Assembly (NCBI GenBank): GCA_016699995.1
Contig: CP064996.1
Coordinates: 10,357-74,356 of the forward strand
DNA from: a bacterium
GTDB taxonomy: Bacteria > Patescibacteriota > Doudnabacteria > UBA920
Direction: 5' to 3'
Length of the DNA: 64,000 bases
Shown: positions 2-25,744 of the stretch, piece after piece
Layout of the letters: each line of letters starts with the position of its first letter
Numbering within the stretch: the first letter of the stretch is position 1
Position numbers and translations under genes: made by a program
Notes under the pieces: generated by a model
Told to the model about the DNA's origin: nothing
Database searches by the model: none
What the model saw: the letters and a program-made list of their open reading frames with translations, nothing else

Positions 2-2695
2 ACCGTCCAGTCTGCAACTGCGTTAACAGTTGCCCGCAGCGGAGCAGATTACGCATTGCAGGTGGACACTAATACTGCGAGTTCTGTAACCGGCTTGAAG
101 GTCACCTCTGCAGCTGCTGGTAGCGGTATTGCTTTGGCTACAATTTCTTCCGGTACTAATGAATTCATGACTATAGATGGTAAAGGAAGTGGAGAGGTAA
201 GAGTCGGGGGGATTTCTACAGGCAATATTTTGTTAGGAGGCGGTAGTGGTTCTACTGGTTGTACCGTGACGAATTCGACTGGAGCTTTTGCATGTACGGC
301 TGGTGGGTCATTCACCACAGGTACATTTAGCCCAACTGGTGCTAATAATGTATCTATAACAAATAGTACCGCATCGGGAACAGCGGGTGCTTTGAACATG
401 GTAGTAACTTCCAATTCGGACTTTGTCCCTGCTGCAAAGATTTCAATGACTCAAACTGCGACAGGCTCTCTTAATGCTAGCTACGGTTTGCAAAATAATG
501 TTTTCTCCAGTGCGGTTGTAACTGGGGGAGGAGTTGGCCAAACTCTATATGGCAGCAGTACTGCTGTAGACAAAACTGGTGCGGATACGGCGACAGGCAC
601 CTATACAGTTTACGGAGATTACATTACAGCTAGTAATACAGGTCGTACCAATGTTGGTACGGTTGATACTTATGGCTCTCGCGTCATTGTTACAGGAGAC
701 ACTGCTGGCGCATCCACAACATATGGGTTGCATGTAGCAGCAAGCGGTGCGGATAATAATTACGCCATTATCACCAACGGTGGCAATGTAGGTATTGGTG
801 ATACCACTCCGGCGTCGTTGCTGACCGTTGGTAGCGGCGATGCTTTTCAGGTAAACTCTTCCGGTGCAATTGCTGCAGCAACTGGAATCACATCTTCTGG
901 TACCATCACATTGTCTGGTCTTGGCGGCGGGGGAACGCAGTGTGTAAGAACTGATAACTCCGGCGTGCTATCTGCAGCAGCTTGTGGTGGTGCATTAACT
1001 CCCTGGACTTCGAATGTAGATGCTGATGGTTATGCATTACAAGACGCTTTGAACATTGAATTTAGAACAGCAGCAGGATCTGCTCCAGCAGGAACAGTAG
1101 TAGCGTTATTCCAAGACAACTCAGGCGACCTAACAGCCAATGTTCTTACAGGAAAAACCTTTAACATTGCAGTTAACGGTACTGATGAATACAACTTCTC
1201 ATCAACTGCTCTTGCCATGAATTCAAACAACATTACAGGAGTAGGCACAGCAATTACTGGTGCTGCTGGCTTAACTCTTTCTTCAACATCAGCCAACCTT
1301 GCCCTTGCAACGAATACTTCTGGCAACATTACCTTAGCTCCTGCTTCTACTGGTTCTGTACAGATCACTTCTGGTGTAACTACAGGAACAGGAACTTCCT
1401 CTGGTTTGTCTTTAGTCGCTAACTCATTGACTACCGGTGTCGGCATGAACCTTTCTTCTAGCTCGCTTTCTTCCGGGTCGCTAGTCAATTTGGCTGTAAC
1501 AGGTACAGCCGCCGCATCAAGCACTCAGACAGTCTTAAACGTTTCCACTAGCGGGGCTAATTCAAACTCCGGACAGCTTACAGCAGGAGCAAGATTCTCG
1601 AACACTCATACTGGAACCACCTCTAATAACTATGGTGCTTTGTTTGACGCAAGCGGTGGAGATTTTAACTTCGGTAGTCAATTTACTACTAGTGGCGCTG
1701 GGACCGCTAATTATGGAATTCGAGTATATGCATCTGGCGCAACAGATAACTATGCAGCCGCATTTGTGACAGGTCAGGTATTGGTGGGAGCCAATTCTAA
1801 TGTTGGATTCACCGACCAATTATTACTAGTCGGTGATCAGCGTATATATAATGGAAACCTTCGCGTCACGACTACGAACACAACCCAAACAACGACATCT
1901 TCCGCAATAGCGCTAAATGCCAACTCCGTTACATCAGGAACCGCTGCTTATATTGCATCGTCCGGCCTAACTTCTGGGAAGCTGTTGGATCTTCAATCTA
2001 ATGGCACTGCCGCTGCTGCTAGTCAGACTGGCTTGAACATTTCTCTGCAGGGCACCAATGCTACTAGCGGCATCACGACTTACGGCGCACAAATTTCTAA
2101 TGCTCATGCCGGCACAACCTCAACTAATGTGGCGCTGCAGCTTTCTGCTACCAATGGCACTACTGCTAACTACGCGTTAATTACAAACGGTGGCAACGTC
2201 GGTATTGGTGATACCACACCAAATTCTCTGTTTACAGTAGGTTCCGGAGATTTGTTCCAGATTAATTCTTCGGGACAGATTGGCTCGCAGCAAGCTCCGG
2301 TTTCTGACTACTTGTTTGCGTTGTCAGGCAACACAACCAACGACAACTCAAGGATTATTGACATTGTGCATGCAAATGACGCTGCCGAAGACTCTGATTC
2401 CATTAAAATCGTCAATACGGTAAACAGAGGCACGCTTGATGCCGACCAAGGTATTGTCACGGCCTTTAATAGTACCTTAACTCCAACCGCTACAGTGTCC
2501 GGAACCATTAACCAAGGGATGCTCGATGTGTATGGTCTTTCTCAAACTGTAAACACTTCCAATGTTACTATCGGCAGTGACTCTTCTGGTGACGTGTGGT
2601 TAAATACAAACGGCATATATAGCCAAGTGGTTGCAGCTCCGACCATTAATGATGCCGCAGGAAGACGGGTATTTACTCCATATCTGCAGGCTTGA
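2..2695 (+). CDS. Tail-fibre-like Thr/Gly/Ser-rich repeat surface protein. It is 5'-partial: the reading frame is open to the window edge.
   Basis: Single 879-aa ORF that stays open upstream to nt 2. It carries repeated NY(A/G)xxxxxG(N/G)VGIG(D/E)TTP(x)SL(F/L)TVG modules (nt ~757-880 and ~2161-2290). These match the N-VGIGTTSP-AKL-V repeat signature of bacterial and phage tail-fibre-domain proteins. Confidence 0.6.
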   Translation, partial: TVQSATALTVARSGADYALQVDTNTASSVTGLKVTSAAAGSGIALATISSGTNEFMTIDGKGSGEVRVGGISTGNILLGGGSGSTGCTVTNSTGAFACTAGGSFTTGTFSPTGANNVSITNSTASGTAGALNMVVTSNSDFVPAAKISMTQTATGSLNASYGLQNNVFSSAVVTGGGVGQTLYGSSTAVDKTGADTATGTYTVYGDYITASNTGRTNVGTVDTYGSRVIVTGDTAGASTTYGLHVAASGADNNYAIITNGGNVGIGDTTPASLLTVGSGDAFQVNSSGAIAAATGITSSGTITLSGLGGGGTQCVRTDNSGVLSAAACGGALTPWTSNVDADGYALQDALNIEFRTAAGSAPAGTVVALFQDNSGDLTANVLTGKTFNIAVNGTDEYNFSSTALAMNSNNITGVGTAITGAAGLTLSSTSANLALATNTSGNITLAPASTGSVQITSGVTTGTGTSSGLSLVANSLTTGVGMNLSSSSLSSGSLVNLAVTGTAAASSTQTVLNVSTSGANSNSGQLTAGARFSNTHTGTTSNNYGALFDASGGDFNFGSQFTTSGAGTANYGIRVYASGATDNYAAAFVTGQVLVGANSNVGFTDQLLLVGDQRIYNGNLRVTTTNTTQTTTSSAIALNANSVTSGTAAYIASSGLTSGKLLDLQSNGTAAAASQTGLNISLQGTNATSGITTYGAQISNAHAGTTSTNVALQLSATNGTTANYALITNGGNVGIGDTTPNSLFTVGSGDLFQINSSGQIGSQQAPVSDYLFALSGNTTNDNSRIIDIVHANDAAEDSDSIKIVNTVNRGTLDADQGIVTAFNSTLTPTATVSGTINQGMLDVYGLSQTVNTSNVTIGSDSSGDVWLNTNGIYSQVVAAPTINDAAGRRVFTPYLQA

Positions 2696-5073: not shown

Positions 5074-5102
5074 TTGATAAAATAATTAAAATGTGCTATA
5101 AT
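5074..5102 (+). promoter_or_regulatory. Sigma70-type promoter, TTGATA-17nt-TATAAT.
   Basis: TTGATA at 5074-5079, an exact 17-nt spacer, TATAAT at 5097-5102. The predicted TSS is about 5109. The ATG at 5091 lies inside the spacer. Confidence 0.6.
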
Positions 5103-5177
5103 AACTATAAGTTAAAACTTGTAGTTAGCACTAAAGCTAACGTGACTGAAACAAAAATACAATTTAATATAAAAAGC

Positions 5178-8100
5178 TTGCAAACAAAACCAAAAAACAT
5201 TTTGGAGTCGCTTTATAAATACAAATACTTAACCTTTGTAGGGGTTTTTGTATTTGTTGGCCTGCTCGCGTTTGGTAGTTTGGCAGGAAAAGCTTCGGCA
5301 GACACACAGGGGCCATATAGTACGACAAATGGTTACACAAACATTGTTGGATGTGGGGATAACGGTGATTGGAGTGATATTAACCAAGCAAGCGGTAGTG
5401 ATGATGCATACGCCAGCTCCAGCTTAAAGTCAGACTGGTGCAGTTACTTTTTATATTTAGATGGTTTTGGTTTTAATATTCCAGCCGGAGCGACTATTGA
5501 TGGTATCGAAGTGGGTATCGAAAGAAGAGCCGAGTTTGCTGGTGATTTAGTTGAGCAGTATGTGAGCATGCTCGATGCAGGATCACCTGTTGGCTCAAAC
5601 TATGCCGATTCAAATTACTGGCAAGATTATGACGATACTGTGTATTATGGTAGCTCCTCAGATTTATGGGGTAACAGCTGGAGTCCTGGAATGATTAATG
5701 ACACTGGTTTTGGTATTATATTGTATGCGCTGGCGGGTACAGAAGGCTCCGATGCATTCATCGACGATGTTTTTATAACTGTTCATTACACTCCCGCTAG
5801 TAATACTTGTCAATCTATTTCTAGTGGTAGTGGTAACTGGAATAGTGCTGGTACTTGGACTAACTGTGGCGGGGGAGTACCGGGGTCTGCGGATACAGCA
5901 ATCATTAATGGAACAGCTAATATTACAGTTACGGCCAGCACAACTGTTGCCAGTCTAAATTTTGGGACTACAGCCGCCGCGGCGACAAATGCCACTCTAA
6001 CGATTAATAGCTCGCAAACTTTAACTGTTACCGGTGTCACAACCATGACAGGCACGGCGGGAACGGCTACGCAGGGGACTGTTACTGGAAGCGGAACTTT
6101 GACGACCACCTATCTTTACATTGGTGCTGCCGTTACACCTTCGTCGACGGTGACAAATAAATTAATCTCTACGATTACCGCATTGAACGTTACTGGTTAC
6201 GTCACACTTAATGGTTATTCCAATGGCGGTAGTTACAACAACCCCGCTTTTGAAATACAGTCTGGTACTGCAGATATATGGGGGATTAATACCACCTTAG
6301 CTCATGCCAGCAATACTGCCACCATAAGCTTACAAACCGGTGCTCAATCGGGTACCCTTAAAATGAGCACTTCTTCTCCGTGGGTGATTAGCGGTACTGG
6401 TACCACAACTACTAGTTTAAACGGTACCACCAGCACCGTGGAGTACTCCGGACTTAACCAAACTTTTTTAAATACTACTTATAAAGGACTTAAAGTGAGT
6501 GGTAACGCGGGGACAACTGCTCAGAATGTAACGGTTTCTGGAGTTTTAAATGTGACTGGTACACTAAGCCCGTCATCTGGAACAATAGTACTGTCTGGTA
6601 CCGGCACTCCGTTAACTGTTTCTGGTACTTTTAATCCTTCCACTACCAGCGTTGTTCAGTACACAGGTTCAACAGCCACAGTTACTGCAACAACTTTTAA
6701 TACTTTAACGGTTGGTGGTACTGGCACCTATACGTTCCCAGCCAGTGGGTGGACCATTAAACGCAATCTTACTATTACATCTGGTGCAACTGTCACTAAG
6801 GGTGCAGGAACAATAACTTTTAACACAGCAGGTCAAAACTGTACGATCACTGGTAATGCAACCAACAGTGATTTAGGAACTATTTCTATCGGTAATGGTT
6901 CGGAAGCAAAATCTTGTGGGTTGGGCAGCTCAGTAAAATTTACGGCAGTGACGATTACAACTGGAGCTGGGTTGGATATGGTCAGTAGTTATACTATGAC
7001 CCTAACTGGCTCTGGTACGCCATTAACTGCAACTGGCGCCTTTACTAAAGCTACAGGTACTGTTGAATACACTTCTGCTTCAGGAGTAACTGCATTGTCG
7101 TCCGTTGCTATGACTAGCTCGAAAAGTTATTATAACTTGATCATCAACGGCAGCGGAACTTTCTCTATGGGATCTGCTTTTGATGTAGCCAATGATTTAA
7201 CCGTAACTTCTGGAACATTATCTAGTTCTGCTAGTACCACTACTAATGGGGTAGTGAGTGTAACTGGCACGATGACATATGCTGGATCCTCTACCTTTAC
7301 TCATAGTACAACATCTTCTAAAAACTTTGGCGGTAACGGCAATCTGAGTTTCTATGCCCTCACGTTTAGCGGTGGGGGAGGTACTACAGTAGCAACCGGC
7401 TCAGGAACTGTCACAGTAACAAATGTTTTAACCAATAGCCATGCTTTTAATGCTGGTAGTAAGACATGGATTCTAACAGGCTCAGGTACGCCGTTTAGCG
7501 GTGGGATTGATACACCGGGTACTTCTACTTTTAGCTATCGTAGTACAACTGGAGCCACGGTCAATAGTAACATTACTTATAATAACTTAGATATCTCTCC
7601 TGCCTCGGGAACTAACCCAACTTTTTTGGTTAATGCGACTAATAAGACCATAAATGGAAACTTAACAGTTTCTGGTGTTTCAGGAACATCGTTGAATTAT
7701 AATAATATCGTTTCTTATCTAATTTTAGGTGGAAATTTAACTATTAATGCGGGCAACACGCTCGTCGCACCGCCAAGCGGAGCGACATTTACAATTGCTG
7801 GCAGTCTAGCTAACTCCGGAACTTTTACTCACAACAGTGGTAATATAACTTTCAGCTCAACTTCTACAGGCAGAACCATCGCTACAAACGGCAGCTCGTT
7901 GAATAATGTTATTTTCAATGGTGCTGGCGGTGGTTGGTCTCCCAGCGGTGGCGCCATGACCTTAGCAGGGGATTTGACCATGACTGCGGGAACGCTTTCT
8001 GGCTCCCAAAACGTAACAGTAAATGGCGGTGATGTAACAGGTAACGGCACGATTAACATGAGTAGCGGTACTTTCTTAGTAGACGGTACCTCGGGCACTG

Positions 8101-11100
8101 GCTTTGGTGGTAGCACTAACTGGACGTTTAGTGCCTTAACCTTTGGGGATGGTAGTGGTAGTACTACTATCAGCTCGACTGGTAGTGGTAGTATTACTAC
8201 TTCGACTCTTACCATAGCAGCTAGCCAGACTTATAACGCAGGTGCAAAAACTTATGTTTTATCAGGCACTGGCACGCCATTAACCGTTACGGGAACCTTT
8301 AATTCGGAATCCAGCACTGTTCAGCATACTGGCGCAACAGCTACGGTTAGAGCAACAACTTATTACACTTTGCATTTGGGAATCAGTAGTGGTACCTACA
8401 CTATGCCCTCTACGACCATAACCATAAAAGGTAATTTAGTTATTCCTAGCGGCGTAACTGTAACCAAAGGCGCAGGTACAATTGTTTTTTCTGGAACTGG
8501 TAATCAACTCATCACTGATAGTAATGATACAAAGCAAGATCTAGGTGCGGTGCAAATTTCTAATACAGCCGATAACTGGTGCTCTGCTGGACAATGTAAT
8601 TACAATTGGCTAAGTCGCCGTAAAATTACTTTTAATAACTCTGATTTGAGTGGTAATTTAACAAACTTTCCAGTATTGGTTTCTTTAACTGGGCTTACAA
8701 TTGATTACGCTAAAACCAAAAACTCCGGTGAAGACATTCGGTTTGTAGATCCCGACGGTACTGTGTTGAATCATGAAATCGAAAAATGGGATGAGTCTGG
8801 CACCTCTTTGGTTTGGGTGAAAATCCCAACATTGAGCAATAATGCGACTGACTACGTTTACATGTACTACAATAACCCCCAGGCTGTAGATATTCAAGCG
8901 CCTACAAATGTTTGGGATAGTAATTATAAAGCAATTTATCACTTGCCAAACGGAACGACTTTGAGGGCTCTAGACTCCACTGGTGTAAATAATGCAAATA
9001 TTACATCAGCAACAGCAACAACTGGAAAAGTTGGTGGGGGAGCTAGTTTTAATGGTACTTCCGCTAAAATAATTGCTCCAGCTACTTCAAGTTTAGATGT
9101 CAGCTCTGGTGCTGGAATTACTGTTGATGGATGGTTTAATCCTACCGACATGACTGGTATGAGACCTTTAATAGAATGGGGAAATAGTGGCGCGTATGGT
9201 GTTCATATGTGGAATTATCCATCAAGCGGGAAAATTTATGTGAATGTTGTTGAGTCCAATGGAGCTAATCATACTTTTCAAACAACAGGGACCCCTTTGA
9301 CTCTTAGTACTTGGCAACATGTTGCTTTTACCTACAATAAATCCACTGGTGCGGTTGCCTTGTATTATAACGGGGTAGCCCAGTCTTTGGACACAGGAAA
9401 CATCGGTGCATTTACACCTAAGACTAACCTCGATTTCAATATCGGACATCGGCCGAATACTGGTGGAGTGTATTATTATAATGGATCTCAGGACGAAATT
9501 AGAGTCTCGAATGTTGTGCGAACAGCCGACTGGATGAAGGCTTCATATAACTCTTCGAACAGTAGTATGAATAGTTTTGGCAGCGAAGAGGTTTATGGTG
9601 GCACGAGCGTGGCCATGGGGTCGCCCTTAAAAATGACTAGCCTGACTATAGATTCTGGCAGAACTTTTGGAGTTAATGGTTCCAATACCCTAACCTTAAC
9701 AGGCAATGGAGCTTCGGTATTTGTAGTCTCTGGCAACTTTATTGCCTCTACAGGTACTGTTGAGTATGTGTCCACGGCCACAACCGGAACGACTGTAGCT
9801 TCTACAACTTATTATAATTTAGTAGTTAACAGGGCTAGTAATACTTTTACCATGCCAGGAGAAATGTACGTTAATAATAATTTTACTATCAGTGCCGGCA
9901 ACTTCTCCATCACAGCAGAATCATTAATTTTGGGTGGGGACTTCACAAACAATGGTACTTTTACACCAAATGAGGGTAGTGTTGTTATGCAGCCGTTAAA
10001 TAGTACAAAAACATCACAGATTTTAGGTTCATCAAATACATCACTTGGTTACTTCCAAGCGATGACCCCGGGGAGTACTATTAAATTCCAAGCCGGACGA
10101 ACATATACTTGGCTTGAGCTAACAGTTGTAGGGTCTGAAGCAGAACCCGTTACATTTTCTAGTACTTCAGCTGGTTCGCAGTGGAATGTAACTTTGACAG
10201 ACACAAATTACATTCAATACTTAAGAGTAAAGGATAGTGCCTGTGTAGGTGACACGTATACTTTTCCAAGGGACAATCCTGATTTATACAACTTAGGTAA
10301 TAATGGTACTTGCTGGGGGTTTATTGTTCAGGTTGATCCTGGTGGTCCTAGCGGTGGTGGTTCTGGATCAAGTGGAGCTTCTAGTTCGACCTCTCAAATC
10401 TTTACAACTTCTGGAACATGGACTGCTCCAGTGGGGATCACATCTGTAGATGTTGAAGTATGGGGCGGCGGTGCAGGCGGTTCTTACTACGGTGGCGGCG
10501 GCGGAGGCGGTGGAGCATATTCCAGAAAAAATTCTATAACAGTAACTCCGTTTAGTACTTATACGGTCACAGTCGGTGCTGGCGGCAACGAGGCAGTCGG
10601 TGGTGACTCTTGGTTCCTTTCTACGGGGACAGTCTTAGCCAAAGGCGGTAGTTTGGGAGTATATGGTTTTGGGGGCGGCGGTCCGCCATGTACTGGTGGT
10701 ACTGGTGGGGCAACAGCTGCCGGAGTTGGTGATGTTAAGTATGCTGGAGGAAACGGTGGTACAGGCCAGTGTTATGGTGGTACTGGTGGCGGCGGTGGTG
10801 CAGGTGCTAGTAGTACTGCAAATGGCGCTAATGGTAGTGGCACAACTGCTGGTGCAAGTTCTGGACAAGGCGGCCGGGGTGGTACCGGTTCTGGGTTTGA
10901 TATATCTCCTCCTGCTGGTAGTTGGGGTGAAGCCATTGGCGGCGGTGGCGGCGGTTGGACATGGTATGAACCTTCTATTCATCCTCGAGGTGCTCGCGGA
11001 GAGGTGCGAATTTACTATAACGGTGCTGGTGGTGGTAGTGGCGGTAGTGGTAGTTCGGGTGGTAGTGGCGGTAGTGGTGGTGGAAGCAGTTGTACAACCA

Positions 11101-11357
11101 CAGCAACGGGTACGGTAGACATGGAAAACGATAGGGTTGCTGGTGTGACTATAGTTTGTGGTGGCTCAGGCTACTCTTCGGCTCCCACAGTGACTTTCAT
11201 TGGCGGCGGCGGTAGCGGCGCATCTGCTACAGCTGTATTAACCAACGGAGTCGTAACTTCCGTGACTATTAATTCAGGCGGCGAGGGGTACGATTTACCT
11301 TCAGTCACATTCTCTGCACCTGGCCAAGGTGGCGGCGGCGGCGGAGCTTCTCCTTAG
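5178..11357 (+). CDS. Giant secreted surface protein of about 2060 aa. It has a signal peptide, roughly 80-aa Thr/Gly repeats, a DUF2341-like plus LamG/ConA-like core, and a glycine-rich C-terminus with tandem terminal repeats. The start is assigned to the in-frame TTG at 5178; the alternatives are GTG 5142 and TTG 5202.
   Basis: Single 2088-codon frame. The signal peptide is YKYKYLTFVGVFVFVGLLAFGSLAGKASA|DTQ. The repeated module reads 'SGTGTPLTV(S/T)GTF..ST..VQ(Y/H)TG.TATV.ATT(F/Y).TL..G..GTYT.P....I...L.I.SG.TVTKGAGTI.F'. The DUF2341-like segment reads 'FPVLVSLTGLTIDYAKTKNSGEDIRFVDPDGTVLNHEIEKWDESGTSLVWVKIP...YVYMYYNN'. The LamG-like segment reads 'GGASFNGTSAKIIAP...GITVDGWFNP'. The Gly-rich block reads 'TTSGTWTAPVGITSVDVEVWGGGAGG...GGGGGGGAYS'. 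Confidence 0.8.
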   Translation: MQTKPKNILESLYKYKYLTFVGVFVFVGLLAFGSLAGKASADTQGPYSTTNGYTNIVGCGDNGDWSDINQASGSDDAYASSSLKSDWCSYFLYLDGFGFNIPAGATIDGIEVGIERRAEFAGDLVEQYVSMLDAGSPVGSNYADSNYWQDYDDTVYYGSSSDLWGNSWSPGMINDTGFGIILYALAGTEGSDAFIDDVFITVHYTPASNTCQSISSGSGNWNSAGTWTNCGGGVPGSADTAIINGTANITVTASTTVASLNFGTTAAAATNATLTINSSQTLTVTGVTTMTGTAGTATQGTVTGSGTLTTTYLYIGAAVTPSSTVTNKLISTITALNVTGYVTLNGYSNGGSYNNPAFEIQSGTADIWGINTTLAHASNTATISLQTGAQSGTLKMSTSSPWVISGTGTTTTSLNGTTSTVEYSGLNQTFLNTTYKGLKVSGNAGTTAQNVTVSGVLNVTGTLSPSSGTIVLSGTGTPLTVSGTFNPSTTSVVQYTGSTATVTATTFNTLTVGGTGTYTFPASGWTIKRNLTITSGATVTKGAGTITFNTAGQNCTITGNATNSDLGTISIGNGSEAKSCGLGSSVKFTAVTITTGAGLDMVSSYTMTLTGSGTPLTATGAFTKATGTVEYTSASGVTALSSVAMTSSKSYYNLIINGSGTFSMGSAFDVANDLTVTSGTLSSSASTTTNGVVSVTGTMTYAGSSTFTHSTTSSKNFGGNGNLSFYALTFSGGGGTTVATGSGTVTVTNVLTNSHAFNAGSKTWILTGSGTPFSGGIDTPGTSTFSYRSTTGATVNSNITYNNLDISPASGTNPTFLVNATNKTINGNLTVSGVSGTSLNYNNIVSYLILGGNLTINAGNTLVAPPSGATFTIAGSLANSGTFTHNSGNITFSSTSTGRTIATNGSSLNNVIFNGAGGGWSPSGGAMTLAGDLTMTAGTLSGSQNVTVNGGDVTGNGTINMSSGTFLVDGTSGTGFGGSTNWTFSALTFGDGSGSTTISSTGSGSITTSTLTIAASQTYNAGAKTYVLSGTGTPLTVTGTFNSESSTVQHTGATATVRATTYYTLHLGISSGTYTMPSTTITIKGNLVIPSGVTVTKGAGTIVFSGTGNQLITDSNDTKQDLGAVQISNTADNWCSAGQCNYNWLSRRKITFNNSDLSGNLTNFPVLVSLTGLTIDYAKTKNSGEDIRFVDPDGTVLNHEIEKWDESGTSLVWVKIPTLSNNATDYVYMYYNNPQAVDIQAPTNVWDSNYKAIYHLPNGTTLRALDSTGVNNANITSATATTGKVGGGASFNGTSAKIIAPATSSLDVSSGAGITVDGWFNPTDMTGMRPLIEWGNSGAYGVHMWNYPSSGKIYVNVVESNGANHTFQTTGTPLTLSTWQHVAFTYNKSTGAVALYYNGVAQSLDTGNIGAFTPKTNLDFNIGHRPNTGGVYYYNGSQDEIRVSNVVRTADWMKASYNSSNSSMNSFGSEEVYGGTSVAMGSPLKMTSLTIDSGRTFGVNGSNTLTLTGNGASVFVVSGNFIASTGTVEYVSTATTGTTVASTTYYNLVVNRASNTFTMPGEMYVNNNFTISAGNFSITAESLILGGDFTNNGTFTPNEGSVVMQPLNSTKTSQILGSSNTSLGYFQAMTPGSTIKFQAGRTYTWLELTVVGSEAEPVTFSSTSAGSQWNVTLTDTNYIQYLRVKDSACVGDTYTFPRDNPDLYNLGNNGTCWGFIVQVDPGGPSGGGSGSSGASSSTSQIFTTSGTWTAPVGITSVDVEVWGGGAGGSYYGGGGGGGGAYSRKNSITVTPFSTYTVTVGAGGNEAVGGDSWFLSTGTVLAKGGSLGVYGFGGGGPPCTGGTGGATAAGVGDVKYAGGNGGTGQCYGGTGGGGGAGASSTANGANGSGTTAGASSGQGGRGGTGSGFDISPPAGSWGEAIGGGGGGWTWYEPSIHPRGARGEVRIYYNGAGGGSGGSGSSGGSGGSGGGSSCTTTATGTVDMENDRVAGVTIVCGGSGYSSAPTVTFIGGGGSGASATAVLTNGVVTSVTINSGGEGYDLPSVTFSAPGQGGGGGGASP

Positions 11358-13284: not shown

Positions 13285-15525
13285 CTATTGTTCTGGCCAA
13301 TGTGCAACCATTAACTGTTTTTCGTTAACTAAGCCTTCGGATGTCAGCTCTTGCCACAATACTTCTGTTAGGAACGGCATATATGGGTGTAGCAATTTTA
13401 AGCTTGTTGTTAACACATGCAGTAAAATTAGCTGGGTGTTTTGCTTTTGCTCCTGGTCTGCCAGTTGAGCCTTGGAGGCCTCTATGTAGACGTCGGCAAA
13501 GTCGCGCCACACGAAGTCATATAAGCTTTGAGCCGCCTCGTGCAAACGAAACTTCTCTAAGTGTTCATTTACAGCTTTAATCGTGCTTGTCAGCTGCTCT
13601 AATATTATTCTGTCGGCTTCAGTAATAGCTTGAGGTGATTTGTATTGGTCCTCAGTAATCGCTTCATCTAAGCTCAGCAGCGCATATCGGGTAATATTCC
13701 ATAACTTGTTCCCAAAGTGCTTCATGCCTTTTACTTTTTGTTCATCGAACAGCGTATCATTGCCGGCGGCGGCATTGAATACCAACGCTAAGCGTAAAGC
13801 ATCGGTTCCGTATTTATCCGCCATTTCGATCGGGTCAATTCCATTGTTGAGTGATTTGCTAAATTTGCGTCCTTGCTTGTCGCGAACAATACCGTGCAAA
13901 TAGATTCTTTGGAAAGGTATTTGTCCAAGGTGGTAGCCAGTCATTAAGATCATGCGTGCTACCCAGAAGAATAAGATTTCGTAGCCCGGCGCTATTACGG
14001 AAGTTGGATGGAAGCTTTTTAAGTCCTCAGTTTGGTTTGGCCATCCTAACGTAGAGAAAGTCCACAAGCCAGACGAAAACCAGGTATCCAGAGTATCTTC
14101 GTCCTGCACCCATTCGTTTGCGTTGTTCCTTCCTGCGTTTTTGTCCGGAGCTTCAATCCCACAGTACTCATCTGTCATGCCGGTGCTGTTATCGGTGCGG
14201 TACCAAACAGGGATCTGATGGCCGAACCATAGCTGGCGGGAAATGCACCAGTCGCGAAGGTTATCGATCCAGTGGAAGTAAGTCTTAGAAAAATGTTCTG
14301 GAATAATTTCGATCTGACCGCTTTGGACTACGTGACGCATCAACTGTTTTAGAGTTACTTCTTGGCCGGTTTTAATGCCTTTGATTTTTGAATCTCTCAC
14401 TAAAAATGGCTTATTTACAGCCAAAAACCATTGAATTTTAGGCAGGGGTTCTATTATTCCGCCCGAACGTTCGGCAGTGGAAACATTTTGCTTGATAACT
14501 TCTTCCTTCTCGATTAACTCGTTTGCCTTCAGCCAGGCCACCACCATTTCTCTAGCTTCTGTGGTTTTCTTCCCCTTGAGATCTACTCCAGCTTGGTCGC
14601 TCCCAACTGTCATTCTGGCGAACTCATTTATTACCGGCTTGGTTTCCAAATTATGGCGTTGCGCAATTTCGGCATCAATAGTGCTGTGCGCCGGGGTAAC
14701 GCCAAGTGCGCCAGTACCAAATTCTTTGTCTACGCTTTCATCTGCAATAACCTTAATATGAATTGGCACTCCAGCAAATGCAATATCGTATTCCTTGCCA
14801 ACAAATTCTTTATAGCGCTCATCGTCGGGATGGACCGCAACAGCTGTATCACCAACCTTGGTTTCTGGGCGAGTTGTAGAAATTGCGATAGGGAAATCTT
14901 TGCTGTACTTAAATGTATACAGTACAGCTTCGCGTTCCTGGTAGATGATTTCATCATCAGAAATAACAGTCTGCCCTTTAGGATCCCAGTTTACTACTTT
15001 GTAGTCGCGATAGATCAGGCCATCGTCGTACATAGCTTTAAACGCGGTGCGTACTGCCAGGCTTCGGGCTTCGTCTAATGTGTAAGCTTCGCGGCTCCAG
15101 TCTAGCGAAGCACCCATTCTTTTAAGCTGATTGATGATCGTATCGTGGCTGTCTTGTGCGAATTTGTTTACGCGTTCCAAAAATGCCGCTCGGCCCAAGT
15201 CGGTTTTACGTTTTCCTTCTTCTTTCTCTAAAATTTTCTCAACTTTGCTTTGGGTGGCAATTGCGGCATGGTCTGTTCCTGGTAGCCAAAGGGTTCTACG
15301 TCCCTGCATTCGCCGAAAACGAATCAGAATATCCTGGATAGTGTCTTCGAATGCATGCCCTAAGTGCAGAGTGCCCGTTACATTCGGCGGCGGCAGGATA
15401 ATTGTAAAAGGCTCGCCGTTTTTATTTGGCAAATTATCCGGGTTAAAGTACCCGGAATCCAGCCAGAGTTTGTATATGTCGGATTCGTACTTGGAAGCGT
15501 CATAGGATTTGTCTAGTTCTTTCAT
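13285..15525 (-). CDS. valS: Valyl-tRNA synthetase.
   Basis: Carries PPPNVTGTLHLGHA (ValRS-type HIGH) and KFSKS (KMSKS). The start is set at ATG 15525 (MKELDKSYD..., the typical ValRS N-terminus). The GTG at 15600 used by the ORF track lies inside the leader terminator. Confidence 0.9.
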   Translation of the reverse strand: MKELDKSYDASKYESDIYKLWLDSGYFNPDNLPNKNGEPFTIILPPPNVTGTLHLGHAFEDTIQDILIRFRRMQGRRTLWLPGTDHAAIATQSKVEKILEKEEGKRKTDLGRAAFLERVNKFAQDSHDTIINQLKRMGASLDWSREAYTLDEARSLAVRTAFKAMYDDGLIYRDYKVVNWDPKGQTVISDDEIIYQEREAVLYTFKYSKDFPIAISTTRPETKVGDTAVAVHPDDERYKEFVGKEYDIAFAGVPIHIKVIADESVDKEFGTGALGVTPAHSTIDAEIAQRHNLETKPVINEFARMTVGSDQAGVDLKGKKTTEAREMVVAWLKANELIEKEEVIKQNVSTAERSGGIIEPLPKIQWFLAVNKPFLVRDSKIKGIKTGQEVTLKQLMRHVVQSGQIEIIPEHFSKTYFHWIDNLRDWCISRQLWFGHQIPVWYRTDNSTGMTDEYCGIEAPDKNAGRNNANEWVQDEDTLDTWFSSGLWTFSTLGWPNQTEDLKSFHPTSVIAPGYEILFFWVARMILMTGYHLGQIPFQRIYLHGIVRDKQGRKFSKSLNNGIDPIEMADKYGTDALRLALVFNAAAGNDTLFDEQKVKGMKHFGNKLWNITRYALLSLDEAITEDQYKSPQAITEADRIILEQLTSTIKAVNEHLEKFRLHEAAQSLYDFVWRDFADVYIEASKAQLADQEQKQNTQLILLHVLTTSLKLLHPYMPFLTEVLWQELTSEGLVNEKQLMVAHWPEQ

Positions 15526-15584
15526 GTGATTTATGTTAATTGGTTTTGAGTCTACGTGCACATCTGTCTGGGATAGCGCCGTGC

Positions 15585-15863
15585 CAAAAATAAAAAACAC
15601 CCGCCATTGCTGGGGTGTCTAGAGCGCTGCCAAGCTGGTGAGCACGCCGCGCGGTACCATCTAGATTTATAGCTTAATTATGCCTATTTTCGGAGGCTCC
15701 GGCAGGTTCTACTAGCATCAGCCAGTGCTTTTCGCGCTTTGAGCGAGGCGGCAGCTCTATGCTTTCTTCCTGCGCCACTGCAGTGACAGCTGCAGTATTG
15801 GCTTCGATTAATCAAAGTATAAGACAAAGTCATCAATTTGTAAACATCTTCTCGCTGGAACTG
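15585..15863 (-). promoter_or_regulatory. T-box riboswitch leader of valS, with a promoter, an antiterminator carrying the UGGUACC bulge, and an intrinsic terminator.
   Basis: The minus-strand RNA reads ...AAUCUAGA-UGGUACC-GCGC(21 nt)GCGC-UCUAGA-CACCC cagcaauggc GGGUGUUUUUUAUUUUU. It matches the T-box core (GGUGGNACCGCG). The terminator AGACACCC/GGGUGUUU overlaps the 3' strand of A1. An upstream TTTACA-17-TATACT promoter sits at about 15805-15833. Confidence 0.6.
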
Positions 15864-16367
15864 TTATAGAGGGTTGTCTCTCAACTTGAGCTTGTATCCA
15901 CTGTAGGCCATGATTGGCTGGGCAATCAAGGTTAAAATTACTCCAGCAACAACAATGCTTAACGACTCCAGCCCTAAAGCATAAAAAATTATGCCGGTTA
16001 GTATAATCGAATCACCATGATCAACTATTGGAACATACTGGCCGCGGGGAATATTGAATCGGCGCTTAGTAAAGCTTCCTAATGCATGGCCGGCGTATAC
16101 TGCGAGACCTTTAAGCAGGCCAATCTCTGGAGTGCTTAAAAAGCTTTCGATTATTGCCCCGGAAAGCAACGCTATTGGCAATCCGACCCAGGTGGTCGAA
16201 TTGCCTAGTATGCGATAACCGTCAAAAAAGTTTTTGTTTAGATCCAGTGCCGCGTCATATTTAAGAATTTTTGGATAGCGCATTTTGAGCAAGTACCATA
16301 AATTCAGAGTGACGTTAATCAGCCAGCACGGAACCGTATAGCTTAAAAGGTGAATTGCGAATGTCAT
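15864..16367 (-). CDS. CTP-transferase-1 family small membrane protein, CDP-archaeol synthase/DUF46-like.
   Basis: 167 aa with 4-5 TM helices. The C-terminal 'GSFTKRRFNIPRGQYVPIVDHGDSII' resembles the CdsA/CarS signature. The family assignment is from memory. Confidence 0.4.
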   Translation of the reverse strand: MTFAIHLLSYTVPCWLINVTLNLWYLLKMRYPKILKYDAALDLNKNFFDGYRILGNSTTWVGLPIALLSGAIIESFLSTPEIGLLKGLAVYAGHALGSFTKRRFNIPRGQYVPIVDHGDSIILTGIIFYALGLESLSIVVAGVILTLIAQPIMAYSGYKLKLRDNPL

Positions 16368-17809
16368 TGCTCGTCCTGGATATTACTGATGAAAAATGTC
16401 TGCGCGCCCGACTTTTGGATAAGCCTTTCGATTATATTCAACGGCCTGGGCCCGCACGGGCGCATGGCCATTCTAACTTTGTAGCTGTGCCAGTCCTTAA
16501 CCATGCCTTGTTCGTTGAAAGCTAAGTCGATAAACCTACTGTTAGCAACTCTATCTTTAATAGGCTGTACTGTAAGCAAGTCAAATGTGCTTTCTTTGTA
16601 TTCGTTCATTGGCAAGCAGTTGTACCAAGGTACTTTTACCGGACCGATGTTGTCCAATAAATTATTCTTATCAATTAATTGTTGAACGGTAAAAGGTTCC
16701 TCGGTTTTGTATTCGTAGATTTTTAGATCCTCGATCTGCTCAATTAGCTCATAGTGCTCCGACCTCACTTCTTTTAAAACTCCCACGTAGGCAGGACCTT
16801 CGCTTATTGGCTTGTTAGCTGTACGGTACATGTTTTTGGCGTGCGAAACCGGCCAATATAACAACAGCGCGCACATGATGATCAATAATATCCCACCGCG
16901 GTTGACCTTTCTTATCGCTAAATAATATAGCATCGAGCCCAGTAATGCTCCTAAGGTCAAACCCTGAAATATTAGCGCCCACTGTTCTGACCACGGGAGG
17001 CCCTGACTAAGGTTAATTAACGAGACTATTACAAAGTATCCTAAAACAGGGGATAATCGCCATAATATCCCTCTTTTTGTGTATCTGGTGGGGTCGATAG
17101 GGAACATTATAAATAGCAGAGCCGCCAAAGCGAACGGGGTTTCCCGATTTAAGATTCCTCCGTCTATAAAATTTTTCACCAAGCTAAAGCTAACAATACT
17201 AAATAGAAGGACATACAGAACCTGCCATCGCCCCGGCGTTTGATTTTTGAATAGCTCTTTGTATTTGTGCAGAAATAGCAAAACCATTCCGCTAAAACTG
17301 GTTCCAACCAGAAACAATCCAACAACTAAGATTATAGGATGAATCAGACCGATGTAAGCCAGTCCCCCATCCACATTTTCCAAAACTCCTACGCCCAACC
17401 ATTGCAGAGCTGCGGCAATTATCCCTTTGAGGACATGGATATGCTTGATAGTTGTGGTAGAGAGCTCCTGATTATTAAATATTATGACAAAGTCGGTAAG
17501 CTTTAACCCTAAATTTTTTATAAGAATGATATGGACCAATAATCCATAACCATAGGTTGCTAAGATAACTCCAGTTAAAGTCTTTAAGTATTCGAATTTA
17601 GGTCTAAGAGGCTGAATAAGTAAGAGGCAAAGCATTGCAGTATACAAAAAGAAACCGAAAATCTTCGCAATACTACGACCGCTGGCAAAAAGATTTACTA
17701 ATTCATGAACCAGCAGCTCTAAAGGCGGAAAAAATTTGATAGCAAAACAAAACGCCAGCATTAGGCCAGCGGTAAAAAGCAATACTTTTTTTTGAGTAAT
17801 AATACCCAT
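16364..17809 (-). CDS. Polytopic membrane protein with a C-terminal soluble domain, and a candidate pilin-modification or ligase-like protein. Its start overlaps the pilin stop region and its end overlaps the next gene by 4 nt.
   Basis: 481 aa. About 10 TM helices sit in the first 310 aa, followed by a ~160-aa hydrophilic domain. It lies in an operon directly downstream of the type IV pilin gene. Confidence 0.6.
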   Translation of the reverse strand: MGIITQKKVLLFTAGLMLAFCFAIKFFPPLELLVHELVNLFASGRSIAKIFGFFLYTAMLCLLLIQPLRPKFEYLKTLTGVILATYGYGLLVHIILIKNLGLKLTDFVIIFNNQELSTTTIKHIHVLKGIIAAALQWLGVGVLENVDGGLAYIGLIHPIILVVGLFLVGTSFSGMVLLFLHKYKELFKNQTPGRWQVLYVLLFSIVSFSLVKNFIDGGILNRETPFALAALLFIMFPIDPTRYTKRGILWRLSPVLGYFVIVSLINLSQGLPWSEQWALIFQGLTLGALLGSMLYYLAIRKVNRGGILLIIMCALLLYWPVSHAKNMYRTANKPISEGPAYVGVLKEVRSEHYELIEQIEDLKIYEYKTEEPFTVQQLIDKNNLLDNIGPVKVPWYNCLPMNEYKESTFDLLTVQPIKDRVANSRFIDLAFNEQGMVKDWHSYKVRMAMRPCGPRPLNIIERLIQKSGAQTFFISNIQDEQ

Positions 17810-24499: not shown

Positions 24500-25744
24500 A
24501 TGTCTGCACTAACCTTGGCAACAAGCAACGGCCAGTTTGTCGGTTTTGATCCGGCTACAATACCGCAAAGCTATCTCCGACAGCTGCGCATAGAAATCAT
24601 CCAGGAAATAGTTCGTGACGGAGCGAACGAAGCTTCGATTAAGCTTCGTTCAGAAATGACCGAAGCGGAAAACTCAGATCCCGTTCTTCAATTTGTGATG
24701 AAGCTGATCGTAGAATCGTGGCTCATCTCTCATGGCTACAGAATGATCCCGGACGGCTCTGTAAGTTCATCAATCCGACTGCAGATGGAGCAGCAAGCCA
24801 AGCGGCGCAATTCTAGCATGTGGGTTAGGGTCATAGACGCTATTCGTGAGACAGGCGAAAAGACCCGCACCGAACTCATCGAGCAGAACGAAGCCCTGGC
24901 AGCTATAAACGAAGCTTTAAAAACTGAAAACTCCCGCTTAGAGCTCGATAATGCAGCCTCAAGGGCTCAGGCAGCCGGTATAATCAATACAGCATCCGAA
25001 AAATCTACAGATATTATTGCTAATGCTACAGAGAAGGCGGATTCGATCCTTTCTAAAACACGAAAGGAAAGCAGCGCCATTATATCCACTGCCCAGAGTT
25101 CGTCTCAGCAGCTGGTAGCAGGCGCAATGCAAAATCGTCAGATGATTTTGGAAGAAATAACCAGGCTGGAAGATAAATTGCTAAATCTTAAAGCGGAGGT
25201 TGGGCAAAAGCAGAATATTCTCAGCGACCTAGATGCCAACCCAGAGGTTGTTGCTGTCTATCAACGCCTTAATTCGAATGATTCTGGTATCAAAGATGTT
25301 ATTATGAGCCAGATTGAGAAGATTAAGTATGATTTTCAGAATATACCAGATGGGTATTATTCCGCCCCGAGAAATTTGGAGAGCATTAAACTTAAGGTGG
25401 TTTTAGTTTCGCTCTACGGTTTTCAGCAGAACATTTTGATGAAGCTTTGTGAATACGAAACTATCCACGGGGCTGCAAAAAGAGTATTGCTTATGCCTAG
25501 TATCATCACTGGGCTAGCAAAAGCATCGGGCAGTTATGCGACATTGCGGGTAGGCAAGGCGACATTTAGCAAGACTGTATTTAGCCGCAGTCTGCGGTGT
25601 CTGCTAGATGAAAACCAGTCTCCCAACGAACTGCTTTTGAGATTTAATGATCTCAGCGGGTCTGTTTGGGCTGATCCATCCGTTGACCCGAATGATAATA
25701 GGTTTATTACCATTTTTGCCAATTTGGAAAAGCTGACTAAATAA
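24500..25744 (+). CDS. Hypothetical coiled-coil protein.
   Basis: 414 aa. Central heptad-rich region (EALAAINEALKTENSRLELDNAASRAQAAG...). AGGAGG lies 8 nt upstream of the ATG. Confidence 0.5.
   Translation: MSALTLATSNGQFVGFDPATIPQSYLRQLRIEIIQEIVRDGANEASIKLRSEMTEAENSDPVLQFVMKLIVESWLISHGYRMIPDGSVSSSIRLQMEQQAKRRNSSMWVRVIDAIRETGEKTRTELIEQNEALAAINEALKTENSRLELDNAASRAQAAGIINTASEKSTDIIANATEKADSILSKTRKESSAIISTAQSSSQQLVAGAMQNRQMILEEITRLEDKLLNLKAEVGQKQNILSDLDANPEVVAVYQRLNSNDSGIKDVIMSQIEKIKYDFQNIPDGYYSAPRNLESIKLKVVLVSLYGFQQNILMKLCEYETIHGAAKRVLLMPSIITGLAKASGSYATLRVGKATFSKTVFSRSLRCLLDENQSPNELLLRFNDLSGSVWADPSVDPNDNRFITIFANLEKLTK

Follow-up and report, generated by a model that had tools for sequence, protein, structure and literature searches.

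A putative T-box leader of reduced architecture upstream of valS in a member of the Patescibacteria

The valS locus

The window, by which we mean the whole 64-kb stretch of DNA that was analysed, carries on its minus strand a valS gene preceded by a leader that a preliminary description had read as a complete T-box riboswitch. Every sequence feature named in that description was found at the position it gave, and the diverged, small-genome lineage suspected there was borne out, the host being a CPR organism. The elements of the locus are as follows:

13285..15525, minus strand: valS (valine-tRNA ligase, 746 aa), the downstream gene predicted to be under control of the leader; identified by NCBIfam equivalog, homologue alignment and public gene call
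15586..15620, minus strand: predicted intrinsic terminator, with the hairpin AGACACCC...GGGUGUUU (15620-15595) and a U6AU5 tract to 15586; overlaps the A1 3' strand by 3 nt
15618..15665, minus strand: antiterminator (discriminator core), with helix A1 UCUAGA/UCUAGA, bulge UGGUACC and helix A2 GCGC/GCGC with a 21-nt loop
15666..15681, minus strand: linker AUAAUUAAG-CUAU-AAA, in which 4 nt replace Stem III and the flanking purine strings AAG and AAA are retained
15682..15701, minus strand: Stem IIA/B pseudoknot, with IIA CGG (15701-15699)/CCG (15693-15691) and loop GCCU (15697-15694)/AGGC (15685-15682)
15702..15773, minus strand: Stem II, with base helix GCAGG (15773-15769)/CCUGC (15706-15702)
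15774..15802, minus strand: ultrashort Stem I, defined by covariation and covariance-model match
15784..15787, minus strand: specifier GUC (15787-15785), a Val codon that pairs with the anticodon GAC, and the purine A15784
15816..15844, minus strand: sigma-70-like promoter TTTACA-17 nt-TATACT, with -35 at 15844-15839 and -10 at 15821-15816

The product of valS scored 922 bits against the NCBIfam valine-tRNA ligase equivalog (cut-off 704), and an identical 746-aa protein has been called in a public assembly. Homologues align from residue 1 when translation begins at ATG 15525, while GTG 15600 lies in the 3' arm of the terminator hairpin; the earlier proposal that the GTG is spurious and the ATG the real start was therefore correct, and the start codon of valS is in effect corrected by way of its leader. 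No other synthetase gene was found among the 19 open reading frames of at least 330 aa in the window. Likewise, a search for TGGNAYY combined with A1/A2 pairing returned only the element in front of valS.

The promoter matches at 10 of 12 positions and is predicted to start transcription a few nucleotides ahead of AAGCC. Since 22 of the 28 family members conserve a site of the form TTTACA/TTGAYA-N16-18-TAnnnT 6-21 nt ahead of the element, the start of the transcript can be placed at the element. The promoter had been recognised before, but its distance from the T-box had been put at about 170 nt, whereas the interval from the -10 box to UGG is about 157 nt.

Comparative structure of the leader

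Folded without constraints, the leader adopted a long-range structure whose energy did not stand out from that of shuffled sequences (z = -0.55). This result was uninformative and comparative structure was used instead. From 19 relatives, with the window left out, a covariance model was built that covers the first two-thirds of the leader (the 5' module). It gave a single match in the 64 kb, at 15673-15803 on the minus strand (85.2 bits, E = 1.9e-20), and it matched 27 of 44 related valS loci from Patescibacteria/CPR, each time upstream of valS and in the same orientation; seven relatives have a further gene between the two. Every helix of the leader shows compensatory changes, across ValRS proteins which are just 51-82% identical. 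The 5' module is 91.9% paired as opposed to 30-43% with slid partners, and 19 of its 22 pairs change on both sides. The conserved core is about 130 nt long, and a variable hairpin comes in addition to it. The leave-one-out match and the covarying helices bear out the proposal that a T-box leader precedes valS.

Stem I consists of a 3-bp and a 7-bp helix. In the lower one GCC (15802-15800) pairs with GGC (15776-15774), all three pairs changing on both sides; in the upper one ACUGCAG (15796-15790) pairs with CUGCAGU (15783-15777), with 93.8% pairing and changes on both sides in six of the seven pairs. The apical loop, CUGUCA (15789-15784), is 6 nt long and contains the specifier. Its GUC columns are invariant in 24 of 24 aligned sequences and are followed by A in 22 and by G in two, so the GUC with an adjoining purine that had been suggested as specifier is the right one. 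Its structural setting is different, however: it had been placed at the base of a long-range GCAGCUG/AGCUGC helix, but it is found in the apical loop of the hairpin 15796-15777. We rejected the long-range helix, since covariation favours the local hairpin and the distal Stem II region holding AGCUGC is unconserved. A second specifier candidate, AGUAG, proved to belong to the S-turn of Stem II, where it forms the 3' strand.

There is no K-turn, internal specifier loop or AG-bulge/distal-loop (elbow-binding) platform in Stem I, nor is any sequence left over that could accommodate the platform. As Stem I is ultrashort, without K-turn or platform, and as the window has no Stem III, the term "complete" does not apply to this T-box.

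Stem II is closed by a base helix that is 99.1% paired, with all five pairs changing on both sides. It contains an S-turn in which AAGAA (15768-15764) faces AGUAGAA (15713-15707); AAGA and UAGA are invariant in the family, and the distal hairpin (15763-15715) varies. An equivalent GAA/GUAGA S-turn, with its string of five purines, is known from ileS T-boxes (PMC7583486). From the specifier purine to the G of the S-turn the spacing is 18 nt, the same as between A19 and G37 in the numbering of Nocardia farcinica ileS.

The pseudoknot that follows carries the F-box-like sequence CCGAAA in the window and CCGUUA or CCGUAA in relatives. All four IIB pairs change on both sides, and the complementarity of loop and tail was 3.57 compared with 2.49 ± 0.07 for shuffled partners (104 pairs). 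In T-boxes, Stem III is flanked by purine strings (RRRxG-Stem III-AA; PMC7583486). In 19 of 28 family members the gap from AAG to UGG is only 11-13 nt, which amounts to the absence of Stem III, and the flanking purines are retained; the other nine have a hairpin at this place.

A codon-blind scan of metagenomes revealed 85 further T-boxes with the same decoding module. Here the triplet in the apical loop went with the downstream gene: AUC with ileS in 4/4 annotated cases and in 27 recognised by an N-terminal motif, GUC with valS in 2/2 annotated cases and in six recognised by motif, GAC with aspS or Asp-tRNA(Asn) ligase, and AAC with aspS.

Antiterminator and terminator

Read along the minus strand, the 3' part of the leader is AAAUCUAGA-UGGUACC-GCGC-(21 nt)-GCGC-UCUAGA-CACCCCAGCAAUGGCGGGUGUUUUUUAUUUUU. 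The strands of A1 are located at 15665-15660 (5') and 15623-15618 (3'), those of A2 at 15652-15649 and 15627-15624, and the 7-nt bulge UGGUACC at 15659-15653, with UGG.A.C invariant in the family. The sequence of A1 varies (UCUAGA, UCAAGU/ACUUGA, UUGAGA/UCUCAA, UCAAGA/UCUUGA) and the bulge-proximal pair of A2, G15652-C15624 in the window and not G·U, is GC in 16 members of the family, GU in three and UA in three. Taken together, A1 and A2 are paired in 97.7% of cells, against 11-46% when slid, and 7 of their 10 pairs change on both sides. This covariation of both helices upholds the reading of UGGUACC as a T-box bulge between A1 and A2.

In T-boxes the N of UGGN complements the discriminator base of the cognate tRNA. 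The 64-kb window contains no tRNA-Val; a tRNA-Val(GAC) with A73 is present in one related genome (L028). Among the metagenome relatives, UGGC accompanies GAC or AAC specifiers in L065, L092, L112, L107 and L144, as expected if tRNA-Asp and tRNA-Asn have G73. In two relatives, L010 and L025, however, UGGC occurs despite a GUC specifier, and UGGU stands alongside GAC or AAC in L050, L059 and L151.

The terminator hairpin was confirmed by folding; a terminator scan with a loop limit of 8 nt missed it because its loop exceeds that limit. Each of the 25 family members analysed has a hairpin with a U-tract immediately 3' of A1. Their terminators overlap A1 by 1-3 nt and A2 not at all (the exception being one off-target fold in L004). 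In the window just three nucleotides (AGA) are common to A1 and terminator. If they are withheld, the terminator loses 3.0 kcal/mol of stability and is reduced to a hairpin of 7 bp (-8.4 kcal/mol), still with U6AU5 behind it. In the family as a whole the cost of withholding the shared nucleotides is 1.2-3.0 kcal/mol, and hairpins of 5-11 bp (-5.6 to -16.6 kcal/mol) remain, with at least four U's directly after them. Moreover, the minimum free energy fold of the 3' domain (-24.5 kcal/mol) contains antiterminator and terminator together, and enforcing the full A1 gives -24.2 kcal/mol. The mutual exclusivity of the two structures that had been put forward is thus weak.

It might be asked whether the 5' arm of the terminator (RCACY) has another pairing partner; inspection of the leaders by eye found none. 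Full overlap of antiterminator and terminator does occur in the metagenome relatives L050, L063, L078, L104 and L156, so that the abutting terminator appears to be a distinct choice.

Comparison with known T-box classes

The closest counterparts are the translational ileS T-boxes (class II) of actinobacteria such as Mycobacterium and Nocardia (6UFG and 6UFM, cited in PMC7583486). They too have an ultrashort Stem I that depends on the Stem II domain and holds the specifier, with a purine next to it, in its apical loop; they lack the K-turn and the elbow-binding double T-loop platform, and have a GAA/AGUAGA S-turn in Stem II at the same 18-nt distance from the specifier purine. The IIA/B pseudoknot, an F-box-like CCGNNA and a UGGN-ACC bulge between A1 and A2 are likewise common to both. 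The valS leader differs from them in its gene, its GUC specifier and its Patescibacteria/CPR host, and in that its output element is a hairpin with a U-tract, i.e. an intrinsic terminator, rather than a Shine-Dalgarno sequestrator. Stem III, moreover, is missing from the window, as it is from 19 of 28 relatives. Translational T-boxes often have insertions in Stem III and A2 (PMC7583486), of which the valS leader has only the one in A2.

With the transcriptional T-boxes of Firmicutes (RF00230; for instance tyrS and glyQS of Bacillus subtilis) the leader shares its place ahead of a gene for an aminoacyl-tRNA synthetase, a specifier with C as its last base, the T-box sequence UGGUACCGCG, the A1/bulge/A2 antiterminator followed by an intrinsic terminator and, as predicted here, the sensing of tRNA. 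[quoted passage not shown] In contrast to the Firmicutes elements it possesses neither a long Stem I (K-turn, internal specifier loop, AG bulge, distal loop) nor Stem III, and its A2 is closed by G-C instead of the conserved G·U. A further difference concerns the terminator. In canonical T-boxes about 12 nucleotides are shared, the A1 and A2 3' strands being used again as the 5' arm of a terminator that is the more stable structure (PMC7583486), whereas in the valS family the 5' arm abuts A1 with 1-3 nt in common. The elbow-binding platform has been described as essential for transcriptional T-boxes and Stem III as indispensable, and ultrashort Stems I have so far been described for translational T-boxes (PMC7583486); both platform and Stem III are missing here.

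These differences bear on the Rfam search by which it had been proposed to verify the leader. RF00230, whose gathering score is 93 bits, gave no match, neither in the whole window at the gathering threshold nor in 15450-15950 at E<=10, and at the gathering threshold it had no match in nineteen relatives. The best sub-threshold scores in relatives were in the range of 26-29 bits (28.7 bits in L044, 26.1 bits in L008). In relatives which keep Stem III the model nonetheless aligns F-box, Stem III and antiterminator correctly, and in L044 it aligns the IIA/B block to its own F-box. For this reason we do not count the miss as a refutation: it reflects the dependence of the model on a long Stem I and Stem III, not the absence of a T-box.

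Proposed mechanism and alternatives

On comparative grounds we regard the valS leader as a real T-box, of a variant unlike the textbook form in the wiring of its terminator. Very probably it belongs to a reduced class of T-boxes and would sense uncharged tRNA-Val(GAC), thereby controlling read-through of the intrinsic terminator before valS. The comparative evidence shows GUC, in the apical loop above the 7-bp helix of Stem I, to be the specifier. The purines of the Stem II S-turn presumably clamp the anticodon-specifier duplex from the side, while the IIA/B pseudoknot would position Stem I and Stem II, an arrangement as in actinobacterial ileS T-boxes. Charge would be sensed by pairing of UGGU in the bulge with the 3' ACCA of the tRNA, a function to which the sequence and the flanking helices point; the end of an uncharged tRNA would then stack on helix A1 and lock it.

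The output is the weakest step of this scheme. Because the terminator adjoins A1 without a gap and shares only AGA with it, classical strand exchange is probably not the whole story. A tRNA-locked A1 would be a rigid, bulky helix that runs directly, with no linker between, into the terminator's 5' arm. Inside the RNA exit channel of the polymerase such a helix may prevent the hairpin from closing at its base, and it would also deprive the stem of its AGA:UUU extension. With charged tRNA or none at all, the 3' strand of A1 would be free, the full hairpin could form and transcription would stop at the U-tract. The small energy cost given above, the hairpins and U-tracts that remain and the fold holding both structures speak against this scheme, and the steric block is accordingly a tentative proposal. 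The missing platform and Stem III, the RF00230 search of the window and the UGGC of L010 and L025 also weigh against the reading as a whole.

More tentatively, the CPR leaders might constitute a third architectural class of T-boxes, transcriptional but without elbow platform or Stem III and with a terminator abutting the antiterminator. What would then decide read-through is not strand exchange but stacking or steric hindrance where A1 meets the terminator, or else a mechanism not yet described. Such a class would apparently be widespread in uncultivated bacteria (Ile, Val, Asp, Asn) and unseen by Rfam and TBDB. We consider this possible, if somewhat less than probable.

Rather unlikely, but to be taken seriously, is the classical strand exchange envisaged in the preliminary description, according to which the AGA overlap makes A1 and terminator exclusive and the loss of AGA:UUU from a marginal hairpin lowers termination. 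The shared purines (AGA, GA or AA) do pair with the first U's in 25/25 members analysed, and many of the hairpins are short, with eight full stems of 7-8 bp being reduced to 5-6 bp without the shared nucleotides. An intrinsic terminator gains strength when its U-tract pairs with an A-tract upstream, which also speaks for this explanation. Against it stand the low energy cost, the leftover hairpins with their U's straight after, and the fold of the window that holds both structures. The overlap is also far from the roughly 12 nt of canonical T-boxes (PMC7583486), and relatives with full overlap exist.

Regulation at the level of translation, as in the actinobacterial ileS class, would require the hairpin after A1 to hide the ribosome landing site without any termination. 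It would fit with the ultrashort Stem I, hitherto described for translational T-boxes (PMC7583486), and with the AUG situated just 5-12 nt past the U-tract in L016, L017, L029 and L041. In the window, however, the AUG is 61 nt past the U-tract and no Shine-Dalgarno-like sequence lies in or adjoining the hairpin or the 3' strand of A1. A GC-rich stem with 4-7 U's, usually followed by more U-rich sequence, is found in 25/25 members whatever the distance of the start codon, and in seven relatives another gene separates the element from valS. A translational mode is accordingly improbable.

That the leader is no functional tRNA sensor at all, but a T-box-like motif arisen by chance or a remnant in decay beside an ordinary constitutive terminator or attenuator, would agree with the unsuccessful RF00230 search and the unremarkable fold energy, yet it is very unlikely in view of the compensatory changes in every helix between such divergent ValRS loci, the invariance of GUC and UGG.A.C, the fit of codon and downstream synthetase across four amino acids and the leave-one-out E-value.

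Significance

A literature search found nothing relevant on T-boxes in CPR, Patescibacteria or Saccharibacteria, or on transcriptional T-boxes with a specifier in the apical loop. The leader predicts that amino-acid regulation by sensing of tRNA exists in Patescibacteria and has been missed by current annotation, as may be understood from the RF00230 gathering score of 93 bits and from the fact that the short-Stem-I model of TBDB is applied to Actinobacteria only. Reviews of T-boxes state three rules: transcriptional T-boxes require a long Stem I platform for fast capture of the tRNA, Stem III is indispensable for sensing of its 3' end, and the terminator prevails by taking up strands of both A1 and A2. 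The valS leader and its relatives break all three, yet they keep the decoding and acceptor-end motifs. If functional, they would represent a natural minimal transcriptional T-box and make it possible to test how far the canonical apparatus can be dispensed with, and they may reveal another way of coupling ligand binding to termination.

The valS leader and its gene

A T-box-like leader lies on the minus strand between the stop codon of a CarS-like gene (15864) and valS. Its parts are as set out in the preliminary description: read on the minus strand, AAAUCUAGA-UGGUACC-GCGC-21 nt-GCGC-UCUAGA is followed immediately by CACCCCAGCAAUGGCGGGUG and U6AU5. The gene 3' of the leader encodes a valine-tRNA ligase: it scores 922 bits with the NCBIfam equivalog, whose cut-off is 704, and Pfam agrees. 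The corrected valS start proposed earlier is sound, since homologue alignments begin at residue 1 of its product and an identical 746-aa product is called in a public assembly.

Features of the window
15844-15816, minus strand: promoter-like TTTACA-17-TATACT
15600, minus strand: GTG, within the 3' arm of the terminator hairpin
15525, minus strand: ATG, start of valS
15864-16367, minus strand: CarS-like gene immediately 5' of the valS promoter (Pfam CarS-like, CDP-archaeol synthase family, 62 bits)
56-2695, plus strand: 879-aa ORF, no Pfam match at E<=1e-5
5091-11357, plus strand: 2088-aa ORF
16364-17809 and 24500-25744: ORFs, likewise without a Pfam match at E<=1e-5

CarS-like proteins form an archaeal-type family of lipid enzymes; the host here is a CPR bacterium.

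Rfam searches and related loci

At gathering thresholds Rfam returned two tRNAs and nothing else in the whole window, and no T-box was found at 15450-15950, even when filters were relaxed and matches up to E<=10 admitted. The preliminary description had proposed a search with RF00230, the Rfam T-box model, and regarded a missing match as refutation; because of this negative outcome comparative evidence was sought.

Using ValRS, 44 valS loci were retrieved, one per species, with ValRS identities of 41-82%. Nearly all came from MAGs of Patescibacteria/CPR; the labels they bear are Ca. Saccharibacteria, Ca. Doudnabacteria or Patescibacteria group. Most closer relatives carried AAWUYWAGWUGGYACC, with a hairpin and a U-tract after it, 5' of valS on the same strand. 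The full leaders share a common architecture. It begins with a short hairpin with the apical loop CUGUCA and continues with GGCGCAGGAAGAA, a variable hairpin and AGUAGAMCYNGCC. There follow CGG-loop-CCG-(U/A)AA, whose loop is complementary to a tetramer further 3', and AAUUAAG, separated from AAAU by a hairpin or merely 1-4 nt. The discriminator (helix A1, the bulge and helix A2) comes next and the terminator last. None of 19 relatives reached the RF00230 gathering score of 93. Sub-threshold matches occurred in relatives that keep Stem III (L044, 28.7 bits; L008, 26.1 bits), with F-box, Stem III and antiterminator in register and Stem I unmatched.

Three valS T-boxes have the bulge UGGUAAC instead of UGGUACC (L009:2350-2400, L013:2899-2925, L030:2893-2915), altering the ACC trinucleotide that reportedly stabilises the discriminator. 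Two others combine a UGGC bulge with a GUC specifier (L010:2925-2931, L025:2869-2875), implying either that the tRNA-Val has G73 or that a mismatch is tolerated.

Several related loci showed further features. A small protein of about 106-121 aa (...IIIACWTSPFYLAWQII...), probably a membrane protein, is encoded between T-box and valS at L016:2469-2834, L017:2143-2463 and L029:1751-2116, and also in L132, where the ORF lies 34 nt past the bulge. In L018, L029, L044 and L160 the T-box-controlled unit also includes a gene for a product of about 275 aa (...KRDNGRLLI[VI]AGS...) that by eye resembles NAD(P)H-hydrate dehydratases. Downstream of valS, L021:3870-4055 contained clustered weak Rfam matches (PyrR, L10 leader, Thr leader, rli38; 22-34 bits); these are unrelated leader or sRNA families, and the region may be U-rich, terminator-like or structured.

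Covariation and the decoding module

For structure tests 24 sequences were aligned with their variable hairpins cut out. The GUC triplet was invariant and was followed by A (22 sequences) or G (two). Pairing in the 5' module (Stem I, Stem II and pseudoknot) reached 91.9%, as against 30-43% when the 3' partners were slid, and discriminator pairing 97.7% as against 11-46%; the structure was derived from the same sequences, so that slid controls flatter it somewhat. Compensatory changes are independent of this: both sides changed in 19 of 22 pairs of the 5' module (upper Stem I 6/7, Stem II base 5/5, pseudoknot 4/4) and in 7 of 10 discriminator pairs. For 104 distinct pairs of pseudoknot loop and tail the mean longest Watson-Crick run was 3.57, compared with 2.49±0.07 for shuffled partners (maximum 2.73 across 1000 shuffles).

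R1, a covariance model that represents the 5' module by 109 positions and 17 pairs, was trained on 19 relatives with the window left out. Its sole match in the 64 kb was 15673-15803 on the minus strand, at full length (85.2 bits, E 1.9e-20). R1 also matched 27 of the 44 valS loci, three of which had been missed earlier because of the bulge UGGUAAC. These comparisons show a conserved, covarying RNA with T-box motifs both for decoding and for the acceptor end.

AAGAA opposite AGUAGAA is a loop-E/S-turn with purine string, and CGG...CCG with its 3' complement is a IIA/B pseudoknot with the F-box-like CCG(U/A)(U/A)A; in the window 18 nt separate the purine after the specifier from the S-turn G. 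The same elements have been described in Stem II domains and actinobacterial ileS T-boxes, the latter with the specifier "mounted in an apical loop" (PMC7583486). The window leader has the apical-loop specifier, S-turn and IIA/B pseudoknot in common with these ileS T-boxes.

Agreement of specifier and gene

Metagenomes were scanned with TAGAMYC-N3-CGG-N5-8-CCG-N8-20-AATTAAG, a pattern that includes neither codon nor T-box bulge. At least 120 loci were found; among the 120 matches listed, 85 have UGGNACC within 200 nt downstream, and R1 matched 76 of the first 100 listed. The short Stem I loops of the loci listed contained AUC, GUC, GAC or AAC.

Specifiers and downstream genes at metagenome loci (ten downstream ORFs, annotated with NCBIfam)
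AUC: ileS (L051, L073, L102, L106)
GUC: valS (L078, L150)
GAC: aspS or Asp-tRNA(Asn) ligase (L092, L112)
GAC: archaeal-type PEP carboxylase (L059:8931-10628, OBEQ011802629.1; TIGR02751, 493 bits)
AAC: aspS (L151)

An automated tally among the matches listed gave 27 ATC/IleRS-like and six GTC/ValRS-like pairs. L151 was the one apparent mismatch: an inserted hairpin had led the parser to ATC, but on visual inspection the specifier loop has AAC, in agreement with aspS. Five of the Asp/Asn specifiers among the matches listed are accompanied by a UGGC bulge, which fits the G73 expected of tRNA-Asp and tRNA-Asn from E. coli-type identity elements. One related locus encodes a tRNA-Val(GAC) with A73; the window contains no tRNA-Val gene. 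The specifier matches the regulated synthetase for four amino acids.

In L059 a short-Stem-I T-box (loop UUGACA; GAC, Asp) stands directly 5' of a non-synthetase gene, with a UGGU bulge and A1 apparently fused with the AAUUAAG linker. Another GAC-loop T-box, in L050 (OBLY010023934.1, 216-311 and downstream), has a terminator with full overlap; it is followed by a truncated ORF (MKIVAIGGGEIGRPG..., 36 aa on the contig) whose product resembles peptidase E/cyanophycinase-type (S51) proteins.

Departures from canonical T-boxes

The leader certainly belongs to the T-box kind, and the original interpretation holds at its core. The claim of completeness fails: unlike canonical T-boxes the leader lacks the long Stem I, and therefore the K-turn and double T-loop platform. 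Its Stem I is instead a short hairpin with GUC in the apical loop, contrary to the details first given. The platform is considered essential in transcriptional T-boxes, and a short Stem I a translational feature (PMC7583486). Stem III, called indispensable (PMC7583486), is also absent from the window (AAG-CUAU-AAA) and from 19 of 28 family members, with both flanking purine strings kept. Where canonical T-boxes conserve a G·U pair as steric sensor, the window has G-C next to the bulge in A2 (GC 16, GU 3, UA 3 in the family).

The terminator, too, does not reuse the 3' strands of A1 and A2, whereas antiterminator and terminator share about 12 nt in canonical leaders (PMC7583486). It begins 0-1 nt past A1 in each of the 25 valS-family members analysed, overlapping 1-3 nt of A1 and none of A2 except in a single off-target fold (L004). 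Full overlap does occur in some members of this decoding class from metagenomes (L050, L063, L078, L104, L147, L156), so the abutting terminator is a distinct variant rather than a parsing artefact. The terminator stem base (window 15586-15620 and the equivalent site in all 25 members) is conserved as RCAC[CU]...[AG]GUG[UC], unlike the rest of the stem, which is free to vary. Sequence constraint is unusual in terminator stems, and its presence here hints at a second role.

Possible mechanism

The hairpin and U-tract are conserved, and a conserved predicted promoter (22/28) sets the transcript start at the element. By analogy with the family, uncharged tRNA-Val(GAC) would bind through an anticodon-GUC duplex clamped by the S-turn, ACCA-UGGU pairing would provide a second contact, and both together would lock A1. 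We favour the view, itself uncertain, that locked A1 blocks termination by steric exclusion: the rigid helix, carrying the tRNA and joined to the terminator 5' arm without any linker, would be kept from the mouth of the RNA exit channel, and the hairpin base would be unable to close. The AGA:UUU extension would be lost as well, reinforcing the block.

Pure competition between A1 and terminator, as originally proposed, is a weaker explanation. Withholding the shared nucleotides costs 1.2-3.0 kcal/mol and leaves hairpins of 5-11 bp (-5.6 to -16.6 kcal/mol) still followed by U's. Nor are the two structures mutually exclusive: the MFE fold of 15668-15586 holds both (-24.5 kcal/mol; -24.2 with full A1 enforced). 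With the AUG 61 nt past the U-tract and no SD-like sequence involved, a translational role is unlikely.

Significance

In the literature searched, whose coverage was incomplete, no link was made between T-boxes and CPR, Patescibacteria or Saccharibacteria, nor was an apical-loop specifier described for a transcriptional T-box. TBDB ran its short-Stem-I model on Actinobacteria only and relies on RF00230 for the rest. The variant pairs a class-II-type decoding module with an intrinsic terminator, lacks Stem III and has an expression platform that is non-overlapping; it sits in a new phylum, on valS, and appears to be undescribed. Since it contradicts the stated requirements of transcriptional T-boxes, the leader is of more interest than a standard T-box would be, the more so as it has many relatives that current annotation has overlooked.
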